Shown here: positions 1,861 through 13,060 of the stretch, piece by piece
Layout: each line of letters opens with the position of its first letter
Numbering within the stretch: the stretch's first letter is position 1
The notes under the pieces: model-generated
The model's input: only the letters and a program-made list of their open reading frames with translations
Told to the model about the DNA's origin: nothing
Database searches by the model: none
Program-made: the position numbers and the translations under genes
Assembly (NCBI GenBank): GCA_034717975.1
Contig: JAYEMF010000084.1
Span: 1 to 13,060, forward strand
DNA: 13,060 nt
Source: Campylobacterota bacterium
Lineage (GTDB): Bacteria; Campylobacterota; Campylobacteria; Campylobacterales; Sulfurimonadaceae
Direction: 5' to 3'

Positions 1861-2664
1861 ATGGACAGTTCAAATCTTCTCACTCAGTGTGAATTTTCAC
1901 TACAGATTATAAATAACTTAAAGGCAATGATTGCTGTAATCGACAGGCAGGAGATGGAGCTGGTTGGTGCAAATCAGACACTCTTCTCGTTTTTTGACAA
2001 AAAAGACCTCTCTGATTTCAAACACACTTATGCATGCATTTGTGAGAGCTTTGAATCTACAGAGAAAGCAGATTATCTAACCGATAAGGATTTAGGTTCT
2101 GCCTGGATATTGGAACTTCTGGATAAGTCCAAAATAAATAAGGCGATTATCAGAGGGAGAATCTTCAAAGTCCTTGGCCACACAATCGATGAGAGGTATA
2201 TCGTTGCTACCTTCACAGATATAACAGAGACAGTGCGTCAAGACAAAGAGCTGGAACAGCTTAGAACACAACAGATGAAGGAGTATGTCAACAAGGCCTC
2301 TTTCCTGCATGAGATAGAGCTTGTCAGCTCCATTGCCCTTCCGGCTTTGATTGTCAATGGAAATGATCGGCTAACCGCCTACAATAACGCTTTTGTCTCT
2401 CTGTTTGATATGTATGAAGACACAGAGAGCATCGAAGATATTAAAACCAAGCAGCTGAATGTTGGTGAAACATTTCTTTTTGAGAGTGAGAGTATCTGTA
2501 AAAGTGCTTTCATTGACTGGAAAGAGGACCGCCTGAATATAGAGAGTGACGAAGCCGATGTCATCGAAATACCGATCAGTTCACAACGGCAGGCCTTTCA
2601 TATTTATATCAGTAAAGTAGAAAATCAGGATGACCGTTTCCTGCTGATTTTGCATAGAGTTTAG
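1861..2664 (+). CDS. PAS-domain protein (PAS - coiled coil - PAS-like), no output domain
   Basis: IINNLKAMIAVID..ANQTLFSFF..CICESF..TFTDITE (PAS ending in DIT), a helical linker, then second PAS-like PALIVNGNDRLTAYNNAFVSLF; RBS GAGGGG at 1846-1851. Confidence 0.75.
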   Translation: MDSSNLLTQCEFSLQIINNLKAMIAVIDRQEMELVGANQTLFSFFDKKDLSDFKHTYACICESFESTEKADYLTDKDLGSAWILELLDKSKINKAIIRGRIFKVLGHTIDERYIVATFTDITETVRQDKELEQLRTQQMKEYVNKASFLHEIELVSSIALPALIVNGNDRLTAYNNAFVSLFDMYEDTESIEDIKTKQLNVGETFLFESESICKSAFIDWKEDRLNIESDEADVIEIPISSQRQAFHIYISKVENQDDRFLLILHRV

Positions 2665-2667
2665 ATA

Positions 2668-4788
2668 ATGCTGGAAATCACACACGATACAACATGCCAT
2701 GGCAGCATTATCTCTATAGGTGCAAGCGAAAAGTATCTCTTCGTTCTTGACAACACCTACCATCTGACACTGTTGCATCCCAATACGCTGGCCTCTCTTA
2801 AAAGCATTCTGCTTGCATCGAAGAGTGCGCCTCTCCATCAGTTCAGCAATGCAATGGATGCTGACGATAGACACCATATTCTCTTCACCGTTGCTAAAAG
2901 CGGCAAAGTCATTCATATGAAGATAACGACCAAACTGGAAAAGATCACCGATACGCTATGGCACGAAGCCAATATTGGGTGTATGACGTTCGACCCTACA
3001 GGACGCTACTATGCAACAGGCGGAAATGATGGCAAGGTCCACCTTTTTGCGTATGAGAGCAGTAAGTGGCTCACATCCTTCGAGATCAGGCCGGACTACA
3101 TATCTGACCTGAACTTTTCCCATGATGGCAACTACCTGCTCTCTGCAGCTTACGATCATCATGTTTTTTTGTATGACACGGTTCGTATAGAACCTGCCGG
3201 AAAATTTGAAACCTCAAGCGTAACAGAGTCAGCACTGTTTTTTGATCATAACCATAAAGTCTGCTGTATTACCCGGCATAAGACATTGGAAGTCTATGAC
3301 CGTGCCGAGCATGAAATCATTTTTTGTGAGACGCTTTTTGATGCATGGCCAACGGTGATGATTACCGATGAGAATGAACGCTATATCATAGTTGGTACAA
3401 AACAAAACCTACTCTATATTATCAGCCTCGATACATACTCTGTCGTGGCAAAGGTTCCCCTTGACGTCCAAGGGGTCTCAACACTGAAACTGACCGATGA
3501 TGCACTTTTCATCGGTACAATAGACGGGCGCATCATGCGAGTTGATCGTACAGTGCTGCTTACGGAGTTTGAAACTGCCTTGCATGTCAAGGATTATAAA
3601 AAGGCAACGGAGCTGCTTGAGAAAAATGCACTGCTCTATTTCAGTAAAGAGGCAGAAGTCTTTGATAAGGATTGGCCGGAGGTCATGACACAGGCCAGAA
3701 AACTGCTTGAACTAAAGAAAATTGATGCTGCAGTTGCATTAACAGACCCCTTTACAAAGCACAATCCAAAATATTCGCAAGAGTTTTTATCTTACTTCTC
3801 CAACAGTAAAGAGATAGTGAATCTTGGAGAGTACGTTGAAAAAAAACTTTTCCAGGCTGCCTATGAACTTATTGAACAGTTCCCGACTTTCAAACAACTG
3901 CAGCTCTATCAGAAACTTGAGGAGTATTGGTTTTTATCGTTTAAAAAAGCGAGAAGGCACCTTGCTACCGGTGAATATGAGGGGAAACTCGAAGCAGAAA
4001 AAATCCTTCACCCCTTTATCAATGTTCCTCAGAAGGAGCAATCCATCAGACAGCTCTTAGCCAGTGCGTCAGTGTTTGAGAATGCAGAGAAACTGATCAA
4101 GCAAAAAGAGTTTGCTGCCTATTTCCAGATGGTAGAACAGTTCTCTTTTTTGGAATCGACGGAGCTCTACCTGAAGACATTGGCTCTGGGCAGTACACTC
4201 CATGATAAAGTTGTAAGATTGGAGCAAGAGAAGTTATGGGACAAAGCTATCGAGCTTTTAGAGTTTTTGGCTGCTTTCCCCACCTATAAAAAGAGTTCGA
4301 TTGAACGTATCAAAGAGATAAACAGATATTTACAATTCATAGAGAACTTAGAGGAAAAGAATTATAAAGCGGCCTATGCACAGGCTGAAGAGAGTCCCTA
4401 TATACAGAGCAGTGATGAATTTCAGAACTTGATAAAAGAGTTTAATACCGAGTATGAAGAGGCATACCATTTGGCGAAATTTGGACCACCAAAGAAGGTA
4501 TTGGCTGCTTTGGAAATATATTTTGAGATTCCATACTGGAATGAAAAAACAAAAAATATCATGAAAGTAGCTTATGCCAACGAGATAAAGAACAGTGCTT
4601 TAAGTACCATAGACTGTAAGAAGACATTGGAAAATTATATCGGTCTGTTTGGTAAAGATACGGTTTTAGAGCAAGCGATCCATGATATCAGTGATTTCCC
4701 AAAAGAGGTCTGGAGCTCAGTAGAAGAGAATAAAAACCCTAAGGAGAAAATTGAGCTTACCAATTATTTTGACACTATACTAGCTTAG
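2668..4788 (+). CDS. WD40 beta-propeller protein with C-terminal alpha-helical repeats
   Basis: WD repeats HEANIGCMTFDPTGRYYATGGNDGKVHLF and YISDLNFSHDGNYLLSAAYDHHVFLYD; all-helical C-terminal ~400 aa with ~85-aa periodicity; 3 nt downstream of the PAS gene. Confidence 0.85.
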   Translation: MLEITHDTTCHGSIISIGASEKYLFVLDNTYHLTLLHPNTLASLKSILLASKSAPLHQFSNAMDADDRHHILFTVAKSGKVIHMKITTKLEKITDTLWHEANIGCMTFDPTGRYYATGGNDGKVHLFAYESSKWLTSFEIRPDYISDLNFSHDGNYLLSAAYDHHVFLYDTVRIEPAGKFETSSVTESALFFDHNHKVCCITRHKTLEVYDRAEHEIIFCETLFDAWPTVMITDENERYIIVGTKQNLLYIISLDTYSVVAKVPLDVQGVSTLKLTDDALFIGTIDGRIMRVDRTVLLTEFETALHVKDYKKATELLEKNALLYFSKEAEVFDKDWPEVMTQARKLLELKKIDAAVALTDPFTKHNPKYSQEFLSYFSNSKEIVNLGEYVEKKLFQAAYELIEQFPTFKQLQLYQKLEEYWFLSFKKARRHLATGEYEGKLEAEKILHPFINVPQKEQSIRQLLASASVFENAEKLIKQKEFAAYFQMVEQFSFLESTELYLKTLALGSTLHDKVVRLEQEKLWDKAIELLEFLAAFPTYKKSSIERIKEINRYLQFIENLEEKNYKAAYAQAEESPYIQSSDEFQNLIKEFNTEYEEAYHLAKFGPPKKVLAALEIYFEIPYWNEKTKNIMKVAYANEIKNSALSTIDCKKTLENYIGLFGKDTVLEQAIHDISDFPKEVWSSVEENKNPKEKIELTNYFDTILA

Positions 4789-4886: not shown

Positions 4887-5912
4887 ATGGCAGAAGCAGC
4901 ATGGTTAAGCAAAAAGCTCGGCAGCGGAAAGGTTTTGTGTCAGGCGTGTGCGCAGGCCTGTAAACTCGATGAAGGTGAATACGGCATCTGCGGTGTAAGA
5001 AAAGTCGAAAACGGCGAACTTAAACTGCTCGTATACGGAGTTGCCGCAGCGGTAAACGTTGATCCGGTGGAGAAGAAACCGATGTTTCATTTTCTGCCAG
5101 AAAGCAGAGCATTTTCCGTGGGAACGGTAGGATGCAACTTCTCCTGTAAATTTTGCCAGAACTACGATATCTCCCAGTACCCCAAAGAGCATGAACATCA
5201 GATCGTCGGCCAGGAACTACCACCTGAACGTATCGTTGAACTTGCAATAGAGCATGGATGCAAATCGGTCGCCTACACCTACAATGAACCGATCGTCTTT
5301 TTTGAGTACACCTACGATACAGCGAAACTGGCACACGAGAGAGGGCTGAAAAACATCTATGTCACCAGCGGATTCGAGACCCGAAAGGCCATCGACCTGC
5401 TAGCACCCTATATCGACGGGATGAATATAGACATCAAGGCTTTTACTGACGAGTTCTACAAAGAGATCTGCGGTGCCCGGCTGAAACCGGTACTCCAGGC
5501 AGTCGAATATGCCCATGAAAAAGGGATCTGGGTAGAGGTGACAACACTGCTTATCCCGGGTAAAAACGACTCCGATGAAGAGATCCGCAATATTGCAAAA
5601 TTTATCGCAGGGGTGGACCCCTCCATACCGTGGCATCTCTCCGCATTTCATCCGATGTACAAGATGCTCGATGTTTCTCGCACTCCCGGATCAACACTGC
5701 GAAGAGCTTATAAAATAGGTCAGGAGGAGGGGCTGAAGTATCTCTATGTCGGCAATATCGACGATGAGGACTTTGAATCGACCTACTGTCCGGAGTGTAA
5801 AGCACGTGTCATTGACAGGCGAGGCCATATCGGACAGTATGTGACTAACGAACTAGATGAAAACGGCAACTGTCCATACTGTGGCTATGGTCTTGAAGGG
5901 GTGTGGCACTGA
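4887..5912 (+). CDS. amrS: AmmeMemoRadiSam system radical SAM enzyme
   Basis: N-terminal CxxCxxxC..GICGVR, DPVEKKPMFHFLP, radical SAM CNFSCKFCQN, AYTYNEP, WVEVTTLLIPG, PWHLSAFHPMYKM, YLYVGN and C-terminal CPEC/CPYC; RBS AAGGA. Confidence 0.93.
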   Translation: MAEAAWLSKKLGSGKVLCQACAQACKLDEGEYGICGVRKVENGELKLLVYGVAAAVNVDPVEKKPMFHFLPESRAFSVGTVGCNFSCKFCQNYDISQYPKEHEHQIVGQELPPERIVELAIEHGCKSVAYTYNEPIVFFEYTYDTAKLAHERGLKNIYVTSGFETRKAIDLLAPYIDGMNIDIKAFTDEFYKEICGARLKPVLQAVEYAHEKGIWVEVTTLLIPGKNDSDEEIRNIAKFIAGVDPSIPWHLSAFHPMYKMLDVSRTPGSTLRRAYKIGQEEGLKYLYVGNIDDEDFESTYCPECKARVIDRRGHIGQYVTNELDENGNCPYCGYGLEGVWH

Positions 5913-5943
5913 GCCTTTGATTTCATTGCATAAAAGAAAATTG

Positions 5944-6573
5944 CTAAAGCAGCTTCTCCAGTTCATGCAAGGTTTTAATGCGATGGGTGGCATCTGAAAA
6001 GTCATGTGAAGAGGTAAAATGATTGTGGACGATGACACACTCTATGCCTGCATTGAATGCTGAGCGCAGTCCGCGCTGCGAGTCTTCCACTACGATCGCT
6101 TCGTGTTTTTCACCCCCGAAAAGTTCCAGCCCTTTGAGATAAGGGTCGGGATGGGGCTTGGAACGTTCGTATTCGCCGCTGCACAGAACAAACTCCATAT
6201 GCTCGGTAAGGCCGCGTGAGGCATGAATAAGCTCAAAGTCCTCACGGCGCGAAGAGGTGACGATACCCATCCTGCAGGTTTTCCCAAGCTCAGAAAGTAT
6301 GGCAGAGACCCCTTTGATCTCAATATCTTCAGTACGAATATAGTGCTGATAGAGCTCATTACGCCTGTCACGATGCTTTTCGACCGTCTCGCTGTCAAAC
6401 CCCTGCTCTTCAGCCAGTAAAAAAGCACTTTGACCATTGATCATAATCTCGCGGTAGCGCGCTTCGTCAAGGTCGATGCCCATTGTCTTAAGAATTTCAA
6501 CATTGGCGTTGAAGTACCACTTCTCAGTCTCTACAAGTACGCCGTCATTATCAAAGAGAATATATTTTTTCAT
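5944..6573 (-). CDS. HAD-superfamily hydrolase (subfamily IA, beta-PGM/CbbY-like phosphatase)
   Basis: Motif I FDNDGVLVET, motif II VTSS, motif III KPHPDPY, motif IV EDSxxG. Confidence 0.93.
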   Translation of the reverse strand: MKKYILFDNDGVLVETEKWYFNANVEILKTMGIDLDEARYREIMINGQSAFLLAEEQGFDSETVEKHRDRRNELYQHYIRTEDIEIKGVSAILSELGKTCRMGIVTSSRREDFELIHASRGLTEHMEFVLCSGEYERSKPHPDPYLKGLELFGGEKHEAIVVEDSQRGLRSAFNAGIECVIVHNHFTSSHDFSDATHRIKTLHELEKLL

Positions 6574-7068: not shown

Positions 7069-7893
7069 CTACTCCTGTTCCTCGTATTTACGTAGAACTC
7101 TATACGCCGCATGTTTAAAACGTTCGGTATCCAGTCCGTAAGCCGCGACCATCTTTGTCGCTTCCTCGATACTCGCTTCGGTCATACCTGTTTTAACATT
7201 GATACATTGGCGTATAACACGAAGGGCTTCCACCGGCATGCGATACTGTTGCGGGACCTCTTCTTTACTATCTAGGTAGCGCATTGTTTCAATAAACACT
7301 TCATCAAAGTTCCAATGCTCAAAGAGCATTACATTCACCTCTGCCGTCGTCACACCTGCATAGAGCCGTTCAACCTCTTCAATCGAATCACATGTTTTCA
7401 GCTCTTCCTGGAAGTAGTTCATATAATCACTTTGCATAAGTTCTTCAGCAACGACGACCCTGCCTGTTTCCATAAGGAATGCTATTGGTATCAACGAGCT
7501 TGCAAGCTCTACATCGACTCCCATATACCACTGAAACATCAATGAACTCTGCATATTACACAGGTCACTGAATTGTGCATTCGAAATATTATAGGGGCTC
7601 ATATCGATATCGAAACTTCTGTTAACGGAAGAGTTAAAGGCAAAACCACGTATGGTGTTTATGCCAAAAAGCGTAATCGCCTGCGCAACAGAGACTATAT
7701 TGTTTCGCAGAGCGTACAGAGGTGCATTTACCTTCGCCAGGATATCTGCAGTGAGGATAGGATCGACTTCAATTACCGCCACCAACGCTTTTGTATCCGG
7801 CGCGCCCTCTGCAAAGAGCAGCTGTAGCTTCTGGATCGATTCCGGAAGCGGCGGCAAAGAGTGCACTTTTTCAATGATAGATTCAAATCCCAT
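7069..7893 (-). CDS. HDOD domain protein (HD motif degenerate)
   Basis: LPPLP..IEVDPILTADILAKVNAPLY..SVAQAITLFG..EHWNF; the LHDIG position reads LMETG; RBS AGGAG. Confidence 0.9.
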   Translation of the reverse strand: MGFESIIEKVHSLPPLPESIQKLQLLFAEGAPDTKALVAVIEVDPILTADILAKVNAPLYALRNNIVSVAQAITLFGINTIRGFAFNSSVNRSFDIDMSPYNISNAQFSDLCNMQSSLMFQWYMGVDVELASSLIPIAFLMETGRVVVAEELMQSDYMNYFQEELKTCDSIEEVERLYAGVTTAEVNVMLFEHWNFDEVFIETMRYLDSKEEVPQQYRMPVEALRVIRQCINVKTGMTEASIEEATKMVAAYGLDTERFKHAAYRVLRKYEEQE

Positions 7894-7947: not shown

Positions 7948-9447
7948 TTATATATCATCCGGCCCGCCCTTCCATACCAACGGAATAGCTATCTCAAAAC
8001 AAGCACCCTCACTGCTGTTTTCTACGCTGATCGTGCCATGCAGATGCTTCTCGACAATGGTCTTGGACATATAGAGCCCCAGACCCGTACCGTTCTTTTC
8101 ATCTTTGGTGGTGAAGTACGGGTCAAAGATTTTCGCTATGATCGCGTTGTCGATACCGCCGCCGTTGTCACAGATAGTCATAATGACGTTTTCTGCATTA
8201 TCTCCGATAACAACATCGATCTTGCGATCTTCAGCGCGGTGCTCCATCAGAGCCTCTTTGGCATTTTTAAGCAGGTTGATACAGACCTGAAGAAGCTCCC
8301 GGGAATAGGTCTTGACCTTGTAACCGTTTCTATGCTTGACGGAGAACGCGATTAGGTTGTTTTCCAGACTTTTGCCAATGATCTTTTCGGCTTCGGCCAT
8401 CACCTCTTCAACTGTGACCTCCTCTATCGTTTTTTCAGGACGGAAGAAGTTTCTAAAGTCATCAATCGTCTTCGAGAGGTACCTGGTCTGTCTGAGGATG
8501 CTCTGCGCCTGCTCCTGGAGAGCCTCTTCGCTCACCATTTTGAGTTCAATATCGGCGAGCATATTGTTCGCCCCCATGGAAATAACGGTGATAGGCTGAC
8601 GCCACTGATGCGCGATCATGCTGATCATCTCACCCATCACAGCGTGGCGCGACTGGGCGATCATGATCTCTTCTTGTTGATCGGCTTCGGCTTCAAGCTC
8701 TTTGATATGGGTCAAATCTATAGCCGCTATAATCTTCAGCTCCTCTTTGCCGACTGCTATATTTCTACATCTTACCAATGCAGATATCCCGTTACCCTCT
8801 TTATTAAAAAGGAGGGTCTCATACGGTACTTTCCGATCACACTCCATCTCTGGGTTCTCAACACATTTTAATGCTTTGCCAATCTGCTCAAGGCTCTCTT
8901 TGCCAATCATTTCATCTTTATCGCTAAAACCAAACATCTCCAGGGCTGCACTGTTTACATTGATACAGACATTGCCTCTATAGACCAAAATTGCCTCTAA
9001 TGAAGCATCAATGACATTTCTTAAGATATCATACTGTTTATCTCTTTCCCTATCAAAGAGTATCGCTTTTGCAACGGTTTCCAGACGCTTTTTAAGCTCT
9101 TTTTTAGCTATGGGTTTAACAATATAACCATCAACATGAAGTTCTACCGCATCGAGCAGAAGTTCAGGCTCCTGATGGGCTGTTGTAATTATAATCGGGG
9201 TCTCCGGATCAATCTCTTTTATACGCCTGCTCATCTCGAGACCATTCATGACAGGCATTTTTATATCCGTTACCACAATATCGGGTCTGTACTGTTCAAA
9301 AACCGCCAGACCCTCTTTCCCGTCTTTTGCAGAGTATGCTTTTTTTGCCCACATATCCAGAAGCATCTCATAACTGCTTCTTACCCCGTCTTCATCATCG
9401 ACAAAAAGTATGGTCATCTCATTTAAGTAACTTTTACTCTGATCCAT
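7948..9447 (-). CDS. hybrid sensor kinase: REC - PAS - HisKA - HATPase
   Basis: REC with VDDE, DIKMP, T and KP intact; PAS ([20 protein letters not shown]); H-box IAHQWRQP; N-box [30 protein letters not shown]; overlaps the upstream kinase by 14 nt. Confidence 0.93.
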
Positions 9448-11143
9448 TGTCCATTCCCAACTCGATTATAAATACCGTTCCGCCATCTTCATTTCTGGCA
9501 GACAGCTTTCCACCCATATTCTCTTCAATGATCATTTTTGAAATATAGAGTCCCATTCCTATACCTTTACCCTGCTCTTTGGTCGTAAAGTATGGTTCAT
9601 ATATTCTATCCAGAATTTCTTGAGCTATTCCACCGCCGTTATCTTTAATCTCTATTATTGCATCATTCTCTGTTTTTGATAGAGATATCCCAATCTGCCC
9701 GTTACTCTTTCCACCCTCCATAATGGCATCTTTTGCATTATTTACGATGTTTAGAACAACCTGTTGAAATTCATTTGGAAGACCAAAAACAGCAAGATCA
9801 TCACCAGTGATATCAAAAGCTATATTATTGTTTTTGAGTTGCGTAGCTACGATATCCAACGTATTTTTTATCTTCTCTTTTACACTAAAGTGATCTTTCT
9901 GCTTGTTTATTCTAAAAAAATCACTGAAATCTGTAATGGTTTTAGATAAAAATCTTATAGTCTCCGTATTTTTTGATACAAATTTTTCAACAAACGCTTC
10001 ATCTATGACACCACCCTCGTAAAACTCTTCAAGCATCTCGATATTGATATTGAGCTCATTGAGAGGCTGTCTCCACTGATGGGCGATCGAGCCCATCATC
10101 TCCCCCATGGCAACAAGTTTTGCATGCTGGGCAAGCTGGGATTCAATCTCTTTTGTTTTTTGGTAATTTCTTGCATTGGCAATGGCAAGCGCACATACCC
10201 CGCTTAAAGATATTGCCAGATTGAGGTATTGGTTCTTATATTCGGGGAAGGCTATCTCATCTATATTTAAGACACCGAGCAGGATACTATTATACTTTAT
10301 CTGCAAAACAAAACCGTTGCTTTTTAACAGATATTGCTCTTTTGATTTCAAGGTCTCTTCGATTGTCTCTGCAGTGACATTTTCTGTCAAAAACTGTTTT
10401 TCCAGTTTTGAATCCCTTATAGAGAGATAAAAGAGTGTTTTAGGAGCAAAAAGCATGCTGAAGATCTCAATGATCCTCTCTATGATCTCTCTCTCATCAA
10501 GTTTTTGATTCAGGTGGCTTATTAGATCAAATGCCATTGTATGGTCAGCCGAACTCTTAAACGCCTCTTTCAGTTTTTTTGAGTTCTCTGCACAATCCAT
10601 TTTACCGACAATATTTGTCACATAGAGTTTAAACTGATCCAGACCTATTGGCAAAACCTCATAAGGCTGCTCTACAAAAGCAGAGAACTCCTTCAGGTTC
10701 TCTATAGCATCACTGTCAACCCCGGTATCCAAAAGAAGAAGCTTTTTACAAAATTCCTTATAAAACTCTACCGCTGTACTTTTATCGAATCCCCAGCTTT
10801 TCGTTACATACTTTTTCCAGTTTGAAAGCCATCCCGGGGTTATTATATAGGCGCCCTCTTTTATATGATGATCGACCAGACTCTTTGGAGCAAACATATA
10901 AAAGCAGTTTTCAGACTTGAAGAGTTCGATATTTTTGGGCAGGGAGGCAGCATCAAGGGTACATCCGCCTATCACTGCTACTTTTTGATATCGGTTGAGA
11001 AGTTCTTTATCAAAATTCTCTTTGATGTGGGGAAAATTACATTTTGCCTGATAGGTCAAGATATCTATATTGCTGAACGCTTCTGCAATAGCTTTGATCT
11101 CTTTTTCAAAACTTTTGCAGACTAACAGACATATCTTGCCCAT
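9434..11143 (-). CDS. cytoplasmic sensor histidine kinase: DUF1638-like Cys-rich domain - GAF-like - HisKA - HATPase
   Basis: N-terminal LVC..C..GGC..NC..YIITPGWL..LLLLDTG (DUF1638-like pattern); GAF-like region ending LAIANARNYQ; H-box [35 protein letters not shown]; no TM helix; RBS AAGGAG. Confidence 0.88.
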   Translation of the reverse strand: MGKICLLVCKSFEKEIKAIAEAFSNIDILTYQAKCNFPHIKENFDKELLNRYQKVAVIGGCTLDAASLPKNIELFKSENCFYMFAPKSLVDHHIKEGAYIITPGWLSNWKKYVTKSWGFDKSTAVEFYKEFCKKLLLLDTGVDSDAIENLKEFSAFVEQPYEVLPIGLDQFKLYVTNIVGKMDCAENSKKLKEAFKSSADHTMAFDLISHLNQKLDEREIIERIIEIFSMLFAPKTLFYLSIRDSKLEKQFLTENVTAETIEETLKSKEQYLLKSNGFVLQIKYNSILLGVLNIDEIAFPEYKNQYLNLAISLSGVCALAIANARNYQKTKEIESQLAQHAKLVAMGEMMGSIAHQWRQPLNELNINIEMLEEFYEGGVIDEAFVEKFVSKNTETIRFLSKTITDFSDFFRINKQKDHFSVKEKIKNTLDIVATQLKNNNIAFDITGDDLAVFGLPNEFQQVVLNIVNNAKDAIMEGGKSNGQIGISLSKTENDAIIEIKDNGGGIAQEILDRIYEPYFTTKEQGKGIGMGLYISKMIIEENMGGKLSARNEDGGTVFIIELGMDNGSE

Positions 11144-11163
11144 AACTGATCTCCTTACCTCAA

Positions 11164-12186
11164 CTATTCAATCGGATATTTCCCATATTTCAGGACAGCA
11201 TCTCTAATGGCCAGAAGTGTCTCCTCTTTTATATCCCACGGTATCTCTCCATGGTTTTCCGCCAAAATGAAACCTCCGCCTTTGGCCGCTTTTGAGATGG
11301 CCTCTTTTACTTTCTCATGGGTCTCCTCTACGCTCCAGTGTCTCATCTCTATCGCATTGAGATTTCCAAGAAGCGTCAATTTACCGTCAGCTTCCTCTTT
11401 TAATTTTGCCAGATCCTCCAAGGAACTGACTCCTACAACGGCAGTACCGGTATTGGCCACATCTTTTAAAATCGGTATGCAGTTACCTGATGCAAAGTGT
11501 GTTGCAGTCGGTCCGTTTATGGCCGAGATTGTTCTTTTTGCAACCTCAAAACCTGTTTCCAGATAGAGCTCTCTCGGTATGATTGTAGAGGAAGAGACCG
11601 GGTCAAAATAACAGATTGCCGTAGCTCCCGCTTCCAGCTGTGCATTTGACCAGTTTACACAAAACTCGATATTGACATCCATCAGCTTGTTAAAAAGCTC
11701 TCTATCGTTATAGATAAGCTCCAGATACTTGTCAAAACCCATCTGCATGACAGGAAGCGAGAACGGCGAGACAACAACACCGATGATAGGAACCTCGTCA
11801 CCGGCTTTTTCTTTAAGCATTGCCGTTGCTTCCAAGACTTTTTGCAGAGGCTCAGACTCTTTTACAACAGGCGCTTTCAAGTTCTCTATGTCGGATGCCT
11901 TCAAAAAAGGTGCACCTGCATTTGGAGGACCGTCTTCGCTATAGATGACTCCTGCCCCGAATGCCTCGACTTCTATCGCTGCATAAAAGAAGGAGTAGTA
12001 ACAGTCATGCCCGTACTTCTCTCTAAGCTTAAGCTGCCCCTCATAAACATTTTCAGCTTTTGAAAAATACTCTTTTATCGACATCTTCAGCTCTTTGGCT
12101 CCATGCAGACTCAAAAGCAGAAAATAGGGAACCCTGTCTGGTTCATTCTGTCCGATAGCCGTTAATACTCTTTGCAGTGAGGTCAT
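11164..12186 (-). CDS. uroporphyrinogen decarboxylase-family / MtaA-CmuA-like methyltransferase homolog
   Basis: MTSLQRVLTAI..EPDRVP start, EVEAFGA, IGVVVSPFS, AQLEAGA, DPVSS, LLGNL, GGGFIL; lacks the HemE RQAGR motif; ATGA overlap with the upstream gene. Confidence 0.88.
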   Translation of the reverse strand: MTSLQRVLTAIGQNEPDRVPYFLLLSLHGAKELKMSIKEYFSKAENVYEGQLKLREKYGHDCYYSFFYAAIEVEAFGAGVIYSEDGPPNAGAPFLKASDIENLKAPVVKESEPLQKVLEATAMLKEKAGDEVPIIGVVVSPFSLPVMQMGFDKYLELIYNDRELFNKLMDVNIEFCVNWSNAQLEAGATAICYFDPVSSSTIIPRELYLETGFEVAKRTISAINGPTATHFASGNCIPILKDVANTGTAVVGVSSLEDLAKLKEEADGKLTLLGNLNAIEMRHWSVEETHEKVKEAISKAAKGGGFILAENHGEIPWDIKEETLLAIRDAVLKYGKYPIE

Positions 12187-12815
12187 GACTGATCCTTTAA
12201 CGCTTCAATAACATCTATAACTTTGGATGCATTTGTTGCCATTGCATCCGCACCTATCTCTTTGTAAAGGTCCTTATCAAATCTAAAAGGTGCGCCGCCG
12301 ACTACAACCTTAACACTCATCCCCTCCTGCTGTATTCTGGCTATCAACTCTTTAAGATGCAGAGCAGAGTTAAGCATCAAAACCGAGACCAGCAAGATTT
12401 CAATCTTATCCTCTTTTAAATGAGTGATCAGATTGTCTATGCTGTTTTCCTGTCCATAATCAACAAGATCGTATCCGCTTGCCCTTAAAAAGGTATAGAC
12501 AATCCTTTTCCCCAAGGTATGATAATCGTTAAAAACCACCAATCCCAGGTTTGGATCATCTACTCTTTTGCTTTTGGTCTTTGGAAGCATCTCATCTACG
12601 ATCTCTTCGCAGATCCTGCCCCCCATATAGATTTGAGAGAGTGCGATTTCACCGTTTTCCCATTTCAGGCCCATACTCTCCATCGTAGGAACAACGATCT
12701 GCTCCAATGTATCGATAAAATCACCTGAAGTGGTATTTTCAACCAGGATATCTTTAACTTTTATTCTATTTAAAGATAAAAGGGCATTTTCAAAGTCATT
12801 GATAATCTCTTGCAT
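12183..12815 (-). CDS. stand-alone corrinoid (cobalamin-binding) protein, cap + Rossmann domains
   Basis: Cap motif PTMESMGLKWENGE; DxHxxG (D97-Y-H99-T-L-G102); SVLM; VVGGAP; IGAD; RBS AAGGAG. Confidence 0.92.
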   Translation of the reverse strand: MQEIINDFENALLSLNRIKVKDILVENTTSGDFIDTLEQIVVPTMESMGLKWENGEIALSQIYMGGRICEEIVDEMLPKTKSKRVDDPNLGLVVFNDYHTLGKRIVYTFLRASGYDLVDYGQENSIDNLITHLKEDKIEILLVSVLMLNSALHLKELIARIQQEGMSVKVVVGGAPFRFDKDLYKEIGADAMATNASKVIDVIEALKDQS

Positions 12816-12846: not shown

Positions 12847-12888
12847 AGGATACTCTTATTTTCTCTGGTTTGTCAAGAAGTCGTCAAG
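12847..12888 (-). promoter_or_regulatory. candidate promoter of the corrinoid operon with a tandem CTTGAC repeat
   Basis: Minus strand TTGACA (12871-12876)-N18-TATCCT (12847-12852); CTTGAC twice at 11-bp spacing (12872-12877, 12883-12888). Confidence 0.45.
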
Positions 12889-12920: not shown

Positions 12921-12926
12921 CATACA

Positions 12927-13060
12927 TCACCCCTCCAACTCTGCCAATTTCCCCTCATACATCTCAAGAAGCTCATCCAGCTCATTCTGCACAACTTCCA
13001 GACGCTCAAACTTCACTTCGACATCACTCTCCTCTTGAGAGACAAGCTTAGAGAGTTCCA
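12927..13060 (-). CDS. 3' end of a gene, probably the C-terminal coiled coil of an ABC-F ATPase (partial)
   Basis: Open frame to the window edge: ELSKLVSQEESDVEVKFERLEVVQNELDELLEMYEGKLAELEG*; acidic coiled coil; family call is tentative. Confidence 0.6.
   Translation of the reverse strand, partial: ELSKLVSQEESDVEVKFERLEVVQNELDELLEMYEGKLAELEG

Follow-up and report, generated by a model that had tools for sequence, protein, structure and literature searches.

Can the chemistry of a protein-bound cobamide serve a bacterium as a receptor rather than as a step in metabolism? The question is raised by four genes on the minus strand of contig JAYEMF010000084.1 (C84) of a Campylobacterota bacterium (assembly GCA_034717975.1), situated between positions 12815 and 7948. 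The whole contig, 13,060 bases long, was analysed and is called the window; it belongs to a genome of 2.52 Mb in 149 contigs, which is 99.9% complete by markers. The four genes encode a corrinoid protein, a protein having the UroD fold, a histidine kinase with a DUF1638 domain at its N-terminus, and a second kinase. To our knowledge, corrinoid methyl-transfer chemistry has so far been found only in catabolism, methionine synthesis and acetogenesis. An earlier interpretation made from the letters of the window (the sequence-only reading) held that the corrinoid and UroD-fold pair serves signalling and not catabolism. The comparative evidence upholds this proposal: the trio of corrinoid, UroD-like and DUF1638 genes recurs, its outputs are varied, and no MttB or MtaB is found in the genome.

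The cassette is present in many phyla ahead of different outputs and therefore probably represents an undescribed route from B12 chemistry to a cellular signal. As judged from the sequence, the genes from 12815 to 7948, perhaps continuing to 7069, are on balance best taken as one operon for a cytoplasmic sensory pathway, the receptor of which would be the protein-bound cobamide.

Recurrence of the three-gene cassette

Contigs representing one genome per species were searched with a profile built from residues 1-340 of the DUF1638 kinase. This gave 109 relatives, of which 80 loci were kept, and the window proteins were then searched against all open reading frames (ORFs) of these loci. The corrinoid, UroD-like and DUF1638 genes directly adjoin one another, in the same order and on the same strand, in 74 of the 80 loci, showing that the arrangement is far beyond chance. 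By their record titles, the 80 loci span at least 15 phylum-level groups. The sequence-only reading had suggested a gene-neighbourhood survey to see whether the trio recurs ahead of signalling proteins, and this is what the 74 loci show.

Three of the six loci without the full trio are contig ends (L016, L060 and L063). In the other three, the corrinoid and UroD-like genes are both missing nearby (L017), the UroD-like gene is missing (L024) or a corrinoid gene is not detectable (L020). Elsewhere in the genomes of L017 and L024, a UroD-like gene with 64-66% identity lies beside a corrinoid gene. When all ORFs of the 80 loci are compared with one another, just three conserved families result, the corrinoid, UroD-like and DUF1638 proteins; the other large clusters are antisense shadows of these. 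No conserved fourth gene emerges from this comparison, and the HDOD gene that follows the kinases in the window is likewise not conserved. The trio is thus a self-contained cassette, patchily distributed and situated ahead of interchangeable signalling outputs.

Of the three cassette proteins, the UroD-like one is conserved best. Its orthologues are 47-79% identical to the window protein, compared with 33-59% for the corrinoid protein and 26-44% for the N-terminal module of the kinase, which consists of DUF1638 and a GAF domain. The mean column identities follow the same order (68%, 56% and 41%, respectively).

When the module profile is compared with 1.84 billion cluster representatives (50% identity), 2,782 proteins match at E <= 0.001 and 1,098 at E <= 1e-30. 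The module is N-terminal in all 150 matches listed, starting within the first 36 residues. It is found in none of 60 genomes sampled within the genus, family and order of the host. The best matches of the kinase bear names from the Sulfurimonadaceae and Campylobacterales, which makes a host within the Campylobacterota probable. According to record titles, the carriers are mostly anaerobic or sulfur-cycling hosts, and the cultured ones include Geomonas, Dethiosulfatarculus sandiegensis and Desulfatitalea alkaliphila.

Two loci have an unusual layout. An Anaerolineales locus (L083:2469-8770) has two tandem DUF1638 kinases, the first behind corrinoid and UroD-like genes and the second behind its own corrinoid gene only, as if both kinases used one UroD-like protein. 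In Geomonas sp. Red32 (L084:120-3182), a stand-alone DUF1638 gene of 204 residues is directly followed by a kinase-like gene of 812 residues, about 4 kb upstream of a complete cassette. This pair is a split form of the sensor.

Output domains and the second kinase

Output domains were assigned with Pfam in 77 of 81 DUF1638 proteins, leaving out four truncated ones (L022, L032, L091 and L092). There are 38 kinases, 16 hybrid kinases with a receiver (some also with Hpt), 11 GGDEF proteins, one protein with HisKA only, and 11 with no recognisable output. A second sample, consisting of every second one of 138 newly listed representatives (69 proteins), contains HATPase_c in 53, a receiver in 17, GGDEF in nine, HisKA_2 in six, HWE in three, and HD and STAS in one each. 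No methyl-accepting chemotaxis protein output is seen among the 77 and 69 module proteins of the two samples. The expected variety of outputs is therefore found for histidine kinases and GGDEF proteins, and is extended by HD and STAS, but it does not include chemotaxis receptors. As the outputs vary across the trio loci, the test favours a sensory input module.

The proteins without a recognisable output are those of L015, L035, L046, L052, L060, L063, L066, L070, L074, L084 and L085. The first of these is the nearest Campylobacterota relative and has only a faint HisKA match.

The second kinase of the window (7948-9447, minus strand; 499 residues) consists, according to Pfam, of an N-terminal receiver followed by PAS, HisKA and HATPase_c domains, and is likely to be the phosphoryl acceptor. 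A kinase- or receiver-like gene lies on the same strand 3' of the DUF1638 gene in 21 of 70 assessable loci, so that the second kinase is a common addition and not a fixed component.

The corrinoid protein

The corrinoid protein (12183-12815, minus strand; 210 residues) is composed of a cap domain (B12-binding_2, 34.3 bits) and a Rossmann-type B12-binding domain (B12-binding, 67.7 bits). Its motif DYHTLG corresponds to the His-on motif D97-x-H99-x-x-G102, the three named residues of which are retained in all 77 orthologues. S144 and G173-G174 are also invariant in the alignment, and the cap domain has a conserved block formed by G49, W52, L59, Q61, Y63, R67, C69 and E70. The closest match in the PDB is the monomethylamine corrinoid protein 3ezx (E 6e-20). 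The protein has the motifs DxHxxG, SxL and GG and the cap and Rossmann domains of the MtaC/MtbC/MtgC family (TIGR02370), but the score of 96.3 bits lies below the family cut-off of 215.3, and all equivalog models are far below their cut-offs.

CarH uses cap and B12-binding domains too, and a light sensor of this kind, in which light would break the Co-C bond of the bound cobamide and thereby give the signal, has to be considered. Fusions of a B12 domain with GGDEF exist as photoreceptors (PMC11796333), and PDB entry 8j2y is among the matches of the corrinoid protein. The published light-response signature consists of GxxW, EH, GxxH and GxxxP (PMC11796333). Although GxxW is present in all 77 orthologues, EH is found in none of them, and a CarH-type photoreceptor is rejected on this ground. 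Many of the hosts come from dark anoxic settings by their record titles, and light sensing would leave the UroD-like protein and DUF1638 without an explanation. Taken together, this makes light an extremely improbable signal.

The UroD-like protein

The UroD-like protein (11164-12186, minus strand; 340 residues; Pfam URO-D, 209 bits) has the URO-D TIM-barrel fold, and its closest PDB match is MtaA (4ay7, E 3e-18). Its description as an MtaA-like protein in the sequence-only reading holds for the fold and for the best structural match. However, the protein does not reach the cut-offs of the mtaA_cmuA family (127.4 bits versus 235.4 for TIGR01463, and 129.6 versus 244 for NF004889), and both MtaA-motif cysteines are replaced, so that it is not a canonical MtaA. 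Upon alignment with 4ay7, HiCGN of MtaA corresponds to HfasGN, and GCGiap to nHGeip. These replacements are general among 75 orthologues: H230 is found in 69, A232 in 75, S233 in 73 and H312 in 75. The cysteines of the HxC and GCG motifs of MtaA are, we assume, zinc ligands that activate coenzyme M. If this is correct, the cassette protein does not use a zinc-thiolate mechanism.

The protein is not HemE, as its score with TIGR01464 is 69 bits against a cut-off of 302.95; a separate URO-D gene, scoring 391.8 bits, is located on contig C55 of the same genome. The paralogous UroD gene of this genome matches the cassette orthologues only at about 1e-25, showing that the cassette proteins form an orthologous group of their own.

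The invariant corrinoid-binding motifs would also agree with a sensor of cobamide availability, the kinase reading whether the corrinoid protein is in its holo or apo form, with the UroD-like protein and DUF1638 as loading helpers. B12 uptake or synthesis would be under the control of such a system. Price et al. weighed whether DUF1638 takes part in B12 synthesis and argued against it (PMC5764234). No B12 uptake or synthesis gene is conserved beside the cassette, and a switch between holo and apo forms needs no TIM-barrel enzyme that is so constrained. Availability sensing is accordingly very improbable.

The input region of the DUF1638 kinase

The DUF1638-GAF-histidine kinase (9434-11143, minus strand) is a soluble protein of 569 residues. 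Pfam, the alignments and the AlphaFold2 model place DUF1638 in residues 1-185 (10589-11143). The Pfam match (PF07796) scores 40.5 bits, above the gathering cut-off of 27, and 67 of 69 sampled module proteins match as well. The AlphaFold2 model has a predicted local distance difference test score of 91 for residues 1-340 and of 93.4 for residues 1-185. In this model, the alpha/beta DUF1638 domain is followed by a long helix (residues 169-208), a GAF domain and a second long helix (residues 300-339), which leads into the DHp domain.

The GAF domain (about residues 195-335; 10139-10561) has no Pfam GAF match and is recognised by its predicted fold. Residues 194-337 superimpose on the GAF domain of PDE5A with a VIA-align Z score of 13.2 and a root mean square deviation of 2.4 over 143 aligned residues. 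Many further GAF domains match with Z scores of 10-13, in agreement with Foldseek. A sequence search of the PDB with the input module gives chance-level matches only (E >= 0.26).

The kinase core (9434-10138) is made up of a HisKA-like DHp domain (residues 346-413) and HATPase_c (residues 456-563; 78.8 bits). The HisKA score of 19.7 bits is under the cut-off of 26.9; the H-box HQWRQP is present, as in the second kinase. From these sequence features, the protein fits a two-component histidine kinase with a DHp histidine and a GHKL ATPase. The sequence-only reading regarded DUF1638 as the input domain of this kinase. The domain is indeed N-terminal, but the input consists of DUF1638 together with GAF. 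It is the GAF domain that links DUF1638 to the kinase, and therefore DUF1638 need not be the reader.

DUF1638 contains several conserved cysteines. Among 73 sequences, C9 is kept in 72, C35 in 71 and C80 in 68, and a further cysteine is situated at position 62 in 62 sequences and at position 61, as in the window protein, in 23. Four cysteines lie at or just past the C-terminal ends of strands 1-4 of the AlphaFold2 model. TPGW and LLDTG are further conserved motifs. The same cysteines and the TPGW motif are kept in stand-alone DUF1638 proteins of 179-202 residues. The best VIA-align matches of the DUF1638 fold, with Z scores up to 7.8, are generic alpha/beta domains (Toprim, receiver, PrpR N-terminal and LacI-type).

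Catabolic context and the sister cassette

Besides lacking MttB and MtaB, the genome has few other B12-binding proteins: a full-length MetH with its activation domain, a glutamate mutase, a B12-radical-SAM protein and a corrinoid protein on contig C149. A role in a split methionine synthase is rejected, as the full MetH is present. The cassette operon has a single UroD homologue and no RACo. As the sequence-only reading stated, neither a second methyltransferase nor an activator is present in the operon.

The only RACo-type activator of the genome (Fer2, middle and ASKHA domains) lies in a second, paralogous cassette on contig C149 (L011:5598-10983, minus strand), where Pfam and the ORFs give the order corrinoid protein, UroD-like protein, RACo and a 710-residue kinase. 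The sister kinase carries PAS, HisKA and HATPase_c domains behind an N-terminal domain without assignment, and it gives a weak GAF match. The four genes recur in this order in a genome bin of the Dongiaceae (L130), which holds a DUF1638 cassette as well. The presence of both cassette types in one genome, here and in this bin, is a new observation.

In a survey of 80 metagenome loci having the sister UroD type, a corrinoid gene is found upstream in 54 of 55 assessable cases, RACo is next in 36 of 46, and the same N-terminal-domain protein or a kinase then follows in 24 of 27. The fourth protein carries HATPase_c in 23 and GGDEF in two of the 27. None of the 80 loci contains the DUF1638 module. 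RACo is absent from the same 60 relatives of the genus, family and order that lack the module, and the short RACo loci of 20 cassette genomes show no link to the cassette. The sequence-only reading had named a methyltransferase (MT1) or activator elsewhere in the genome, with a plain catabolic role, as a finding that would speak against signalling. An activator does exist, but it is part of a kinase-linked sensor cassette, and MttB and MtaB are missing; its presence therefore does not point to catabolism.

These findings bear on ordinary methyl-group metabolism, for example of methyl-sulfur or methyl-selenide compounds, in which the kinase would merely regulate locally and sense the substrate by means of DUF1638-GAF. 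Metabolic clusters of corrinoid proteins and UroD-family homologues without a folate methyltransferase are widespread (bioRxiv 10.1101/2023.07.31.551370), and the phenotype of the DUF1638 mutant in Phaeobacter is metabolic (PMC5764234). However, type 1 mlp clusters require Mlp2 and Mlp3 as a minimum, and the cassette possesses a single UroD homologue. It has no second methyltransferase and no conserved fourth gene, is always directly ahead of a signalling protein, to which it is mostly fused, and occurs without RACo in 22 of 50 cassette genomes. The mlp paper (bioRxiv 10.1101/2023.07.31.551370) contains neither DUF1638 nor sensor, two-component or signal, and kinase appears only in enzyme names. 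Metabolism of this ordinary kind is, on this evidence, quite improbable.

The sister cassette also bears on a redox or oxidant sensor. Here the Co(I)/Co(II) couple would sense oxygen, N2O, other oxidants or a very low potential, the DUF1638 cysteines would hold a metal or Fe-S centre, and the UroD-like protein would only protect or re-methylate the cofactor. The four conserved cysteines at the C-terminal ends of strands 1-4, the reductive activator RACo at the equivalent position of the sister cassette and the mostly anaerobic or sulfur-cycling hosts are consistent with it. So is the fact that DUF1638, along with a RamA-like protein, has been linked to the reactivation of B12 (PMC5764234; PMC12478193). 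Nevertheless, the high conservation of the UroD-like protein would be unexplained and the DUF1638 cofactor is only putative. We consider a redox sensor of this kind unlikely; it overlaps with a receptor set by the UroD-like protein and does not exclude it.

Proposed mechanism

Sensing of the cobalt state by an operon-encoded pathway can be described as a series of steps. The UroD-like protein would dock on the corrinoid protein in the manner of MtaA on MtaC and set the state of the upper (methyl) ligand on the cobalt with the help of a small molecule, a donor or acceptor other than a zinc-activated thiol. DUF1638 would then handle the corrinoid protein, either by resetting or coupling the redox state of the cobalt, as RACo may do in the sister cassette, or by binding in a state-dependent way. 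The resulting change would travel through the helix-GAF-helix unit to DHp and alter autophosphorylation. Finally, the phosphoryl group would move to the receiver of the second, receiver-PAS-histidine kinase, which would contribute a second input. As to the signal, our preferred guess is a methyl-donor or one-carbon state or else a redox state of low potential.

A tentative generalisation, for which we claim somewhat less than even confidence, is a widespread family of cytoplasmic receptors. In this family, a UroD-fold enzyme would write the methyl or ligand state of the cobalt, DUF1638 (RACo in the sister cassette) would control the redox state, and a specialised GAF domain would read the corrinoid protein and drive kinases, cyclic di-GMP enzymes and other outputs. 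Two such receptors would then operate in parallel in this genome.

Several points weigh against the pathway. The support is comparative or predicted throughout, and the contact of the corrinoid, UroD-like and DUF1638 proteins is a proposal. Lacking the MtaA-motif cysteines, the UroD-like protein is possibly no methyltransferase. A metal, cluster or ligand site at the DUF1638 cysteines is no more than hinted at by their strand-end positions in the model, and Foldseek finds no relatives of the DUF1638 fold at E <= 0.001. Eleven of the 77 DUF1638-GAF proteins, 337-502 residues long, are without a recognisable output domain. RACo is found in 28 of 50 cassette-bearing genomes of unestablished completeness and not in the other 22, so that a cycle relying on Co(I) would call for a different reductant. 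In a profile-profile comparison with hhalign, the GAF region of the DUF1638 module matches the N-terminal domain of the sister kinases over 127 columns, but weakly (E 9.3e-4, probability 22.5%), and with the single N-terminal sequence of the C149 kinase the module shows no similarity. If the weak match is real, both cassettes share a GAF-like domain as reader, and the positions of DUF1638 and RACo correspond to each other. Such a correspondence agrees with findings in Phaeobacter, where genetics ties DUF1638 and a RamA-like protein together in the reactivation of B12 (PMC5764234).

If the proposal is true, the methyl-transfer chemistry of corrinoids is also put to use in signal reception. Two-component and cyclic di-GMP networks would be fed by the receptor in at least 15 phylum-level groups, among them sulfur oxidisers, sulfate reducers, Geobacter relatives, syntrophs and digester bacteria. 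DUF1638 would gain a functional context, a very strongly conserved orphan branch of UroD proteins would be explained, and kinases would have a new kind of input, by ligand or redox state. Being small, soluble and present in cultured strains, the cassette makes the idea directly testable.

Relation to known systems

A system of similar logic is GlnD/PII/NtrB, where the chemical state of a small carrier protein is controlled by an enzyme and read out by a kinase; the proteins and the chemistry are unrelated.

The MtaC/MtaA-type pairs of methanogens (3ezx, 4ay7), in which the corrinoid protein is joined by a methylcobamide:CoM methyltransferase of the URO-D family, share with the cassette the two folds, the adjacency and the cobalamin-binding motifs. 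The cassette proteins differ in being below every NCBIfam cut-off and in the replaced MtaA-motif cysteines. The cassette has no MT1 partner and no coenzyme M or folate context, and the pair is always ahead of a signalling protein.

In Phaeobacter inhibens, a split B12 methionine synthase needs DUF1638 and a RamA-like protein (PMC5764234). This stand-alone DUF1638 protein belongs to the same Pfam family, and in both organisms the gene is beside that of a stand-alone protein with cap and B12-binding domains. In the present genome, however, DUF1638 is fused to GAF and a kinase, and MetH is complete with its activation domain. The function of DUF1638 in Phaeobacter is likewise not known (PMC5764234).

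Type 1 mlp clusters contain two or three Mlps, which are UroD homologues, and a Ram/RACE activator, and have been interpreted as methyl-sulfur or methyl-selenide metabolism (Kountz and Balskus, bioRxiv 10.1101/2023.07.31.551370). As described, these clusters resemble the cassette in combining a corrinoid protein with homologues of coenzyme M methyltransferases from the UroD superfamily, in lacking a folate methyltransferase and in their wide spread among anaerobes. The cassette falls outside the cluster definition, having one UroD homologue, no RACo, and DUF1638 with a signalling output.

The regulators CarH, AerR and the photocobilin proteins are alike in using protein-bound cobalamin as the sensing element. 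They are single proteins driven by light through Co-C cleavage, whereas the EH element is absent here and two extra input proteins are present. A literature search for DUF1638 or PF07796 in signalling, and for corrinoid or cobalamin combined with kinase, found nothing relevant; most subscription journals lie outside this search, and the result is not proof of absence.

Gene organization and neighbouring genes

Genes were called from the ORF listing and Pfam. The four minus-strand genes from 12815 to 7948 are co-directional and closely packed. The corrinoid and UroD-like genes overlap by ATGA (12186-12183), the UroD-like and DUF1638-kinase genes are separated by 20 nucleotides with AAGGAG ahead of 11143, and the two kinase genes share 14 nucleotides (9447-9434). 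All three junctions are as the sequence-only reading described them. AAGGAG is also situated 8 nucleotides ahead of the ATG of the corrinoid gene.

The single upstream promoter that had been suggested can be located, by consensus match only, as a sigma-70-like candidate at 12847-12876 (minus strand; TTGACA, 18 nucleotides, TATCCT; 10 of 12 positions), inside the 110-nucleotide gap 5' of the corrinoid gene. Sites of this kind are not enriched in the region (17 found versus 12.7 +/- 3.9 in shuffled sequences), and the candidate is therefore weak evidence for a promoter. The same scan shows no intergenic terminator-like site between the genes. Further upstream, at 12926-13060 (minus strand), is the 3' end of a co-directional gene that is cut at the contig edge, the tail of its product being rich in glutamate and leucine.

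An HDOD protein of 274 residues (7069-7893, minus strand; Pfam HDOD, 86.9 bits) is encoded 54 nucleotides past the second kinase. Its gene, which is on the same strand and was absent from the earlier gene list, is possibly the last of the operon. In locus L058:2314-4822, an HDOD gene and a kinase resembling the second kinase (E 3e-45) adjoin the cassette in divergent orientation.

A radical-SAM protein (341 residues, plus strand) and a HAD-family hydrolase (209 residues, minus strand) are encoded convergently at 4887-6573, between the HDOD gene and a pair of plus-strand genes at 1861-4788. This pair encodes a PAS protein of 267 residues and, 3 nucleotides on, a WD40/beta-propeller-repeat protein of 706 residues, in which only WD40 passes its Pfam cut-off, the matches to other families being below theirs. 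The combination of PAS and WD40 proteins is unusual for a bacterium.

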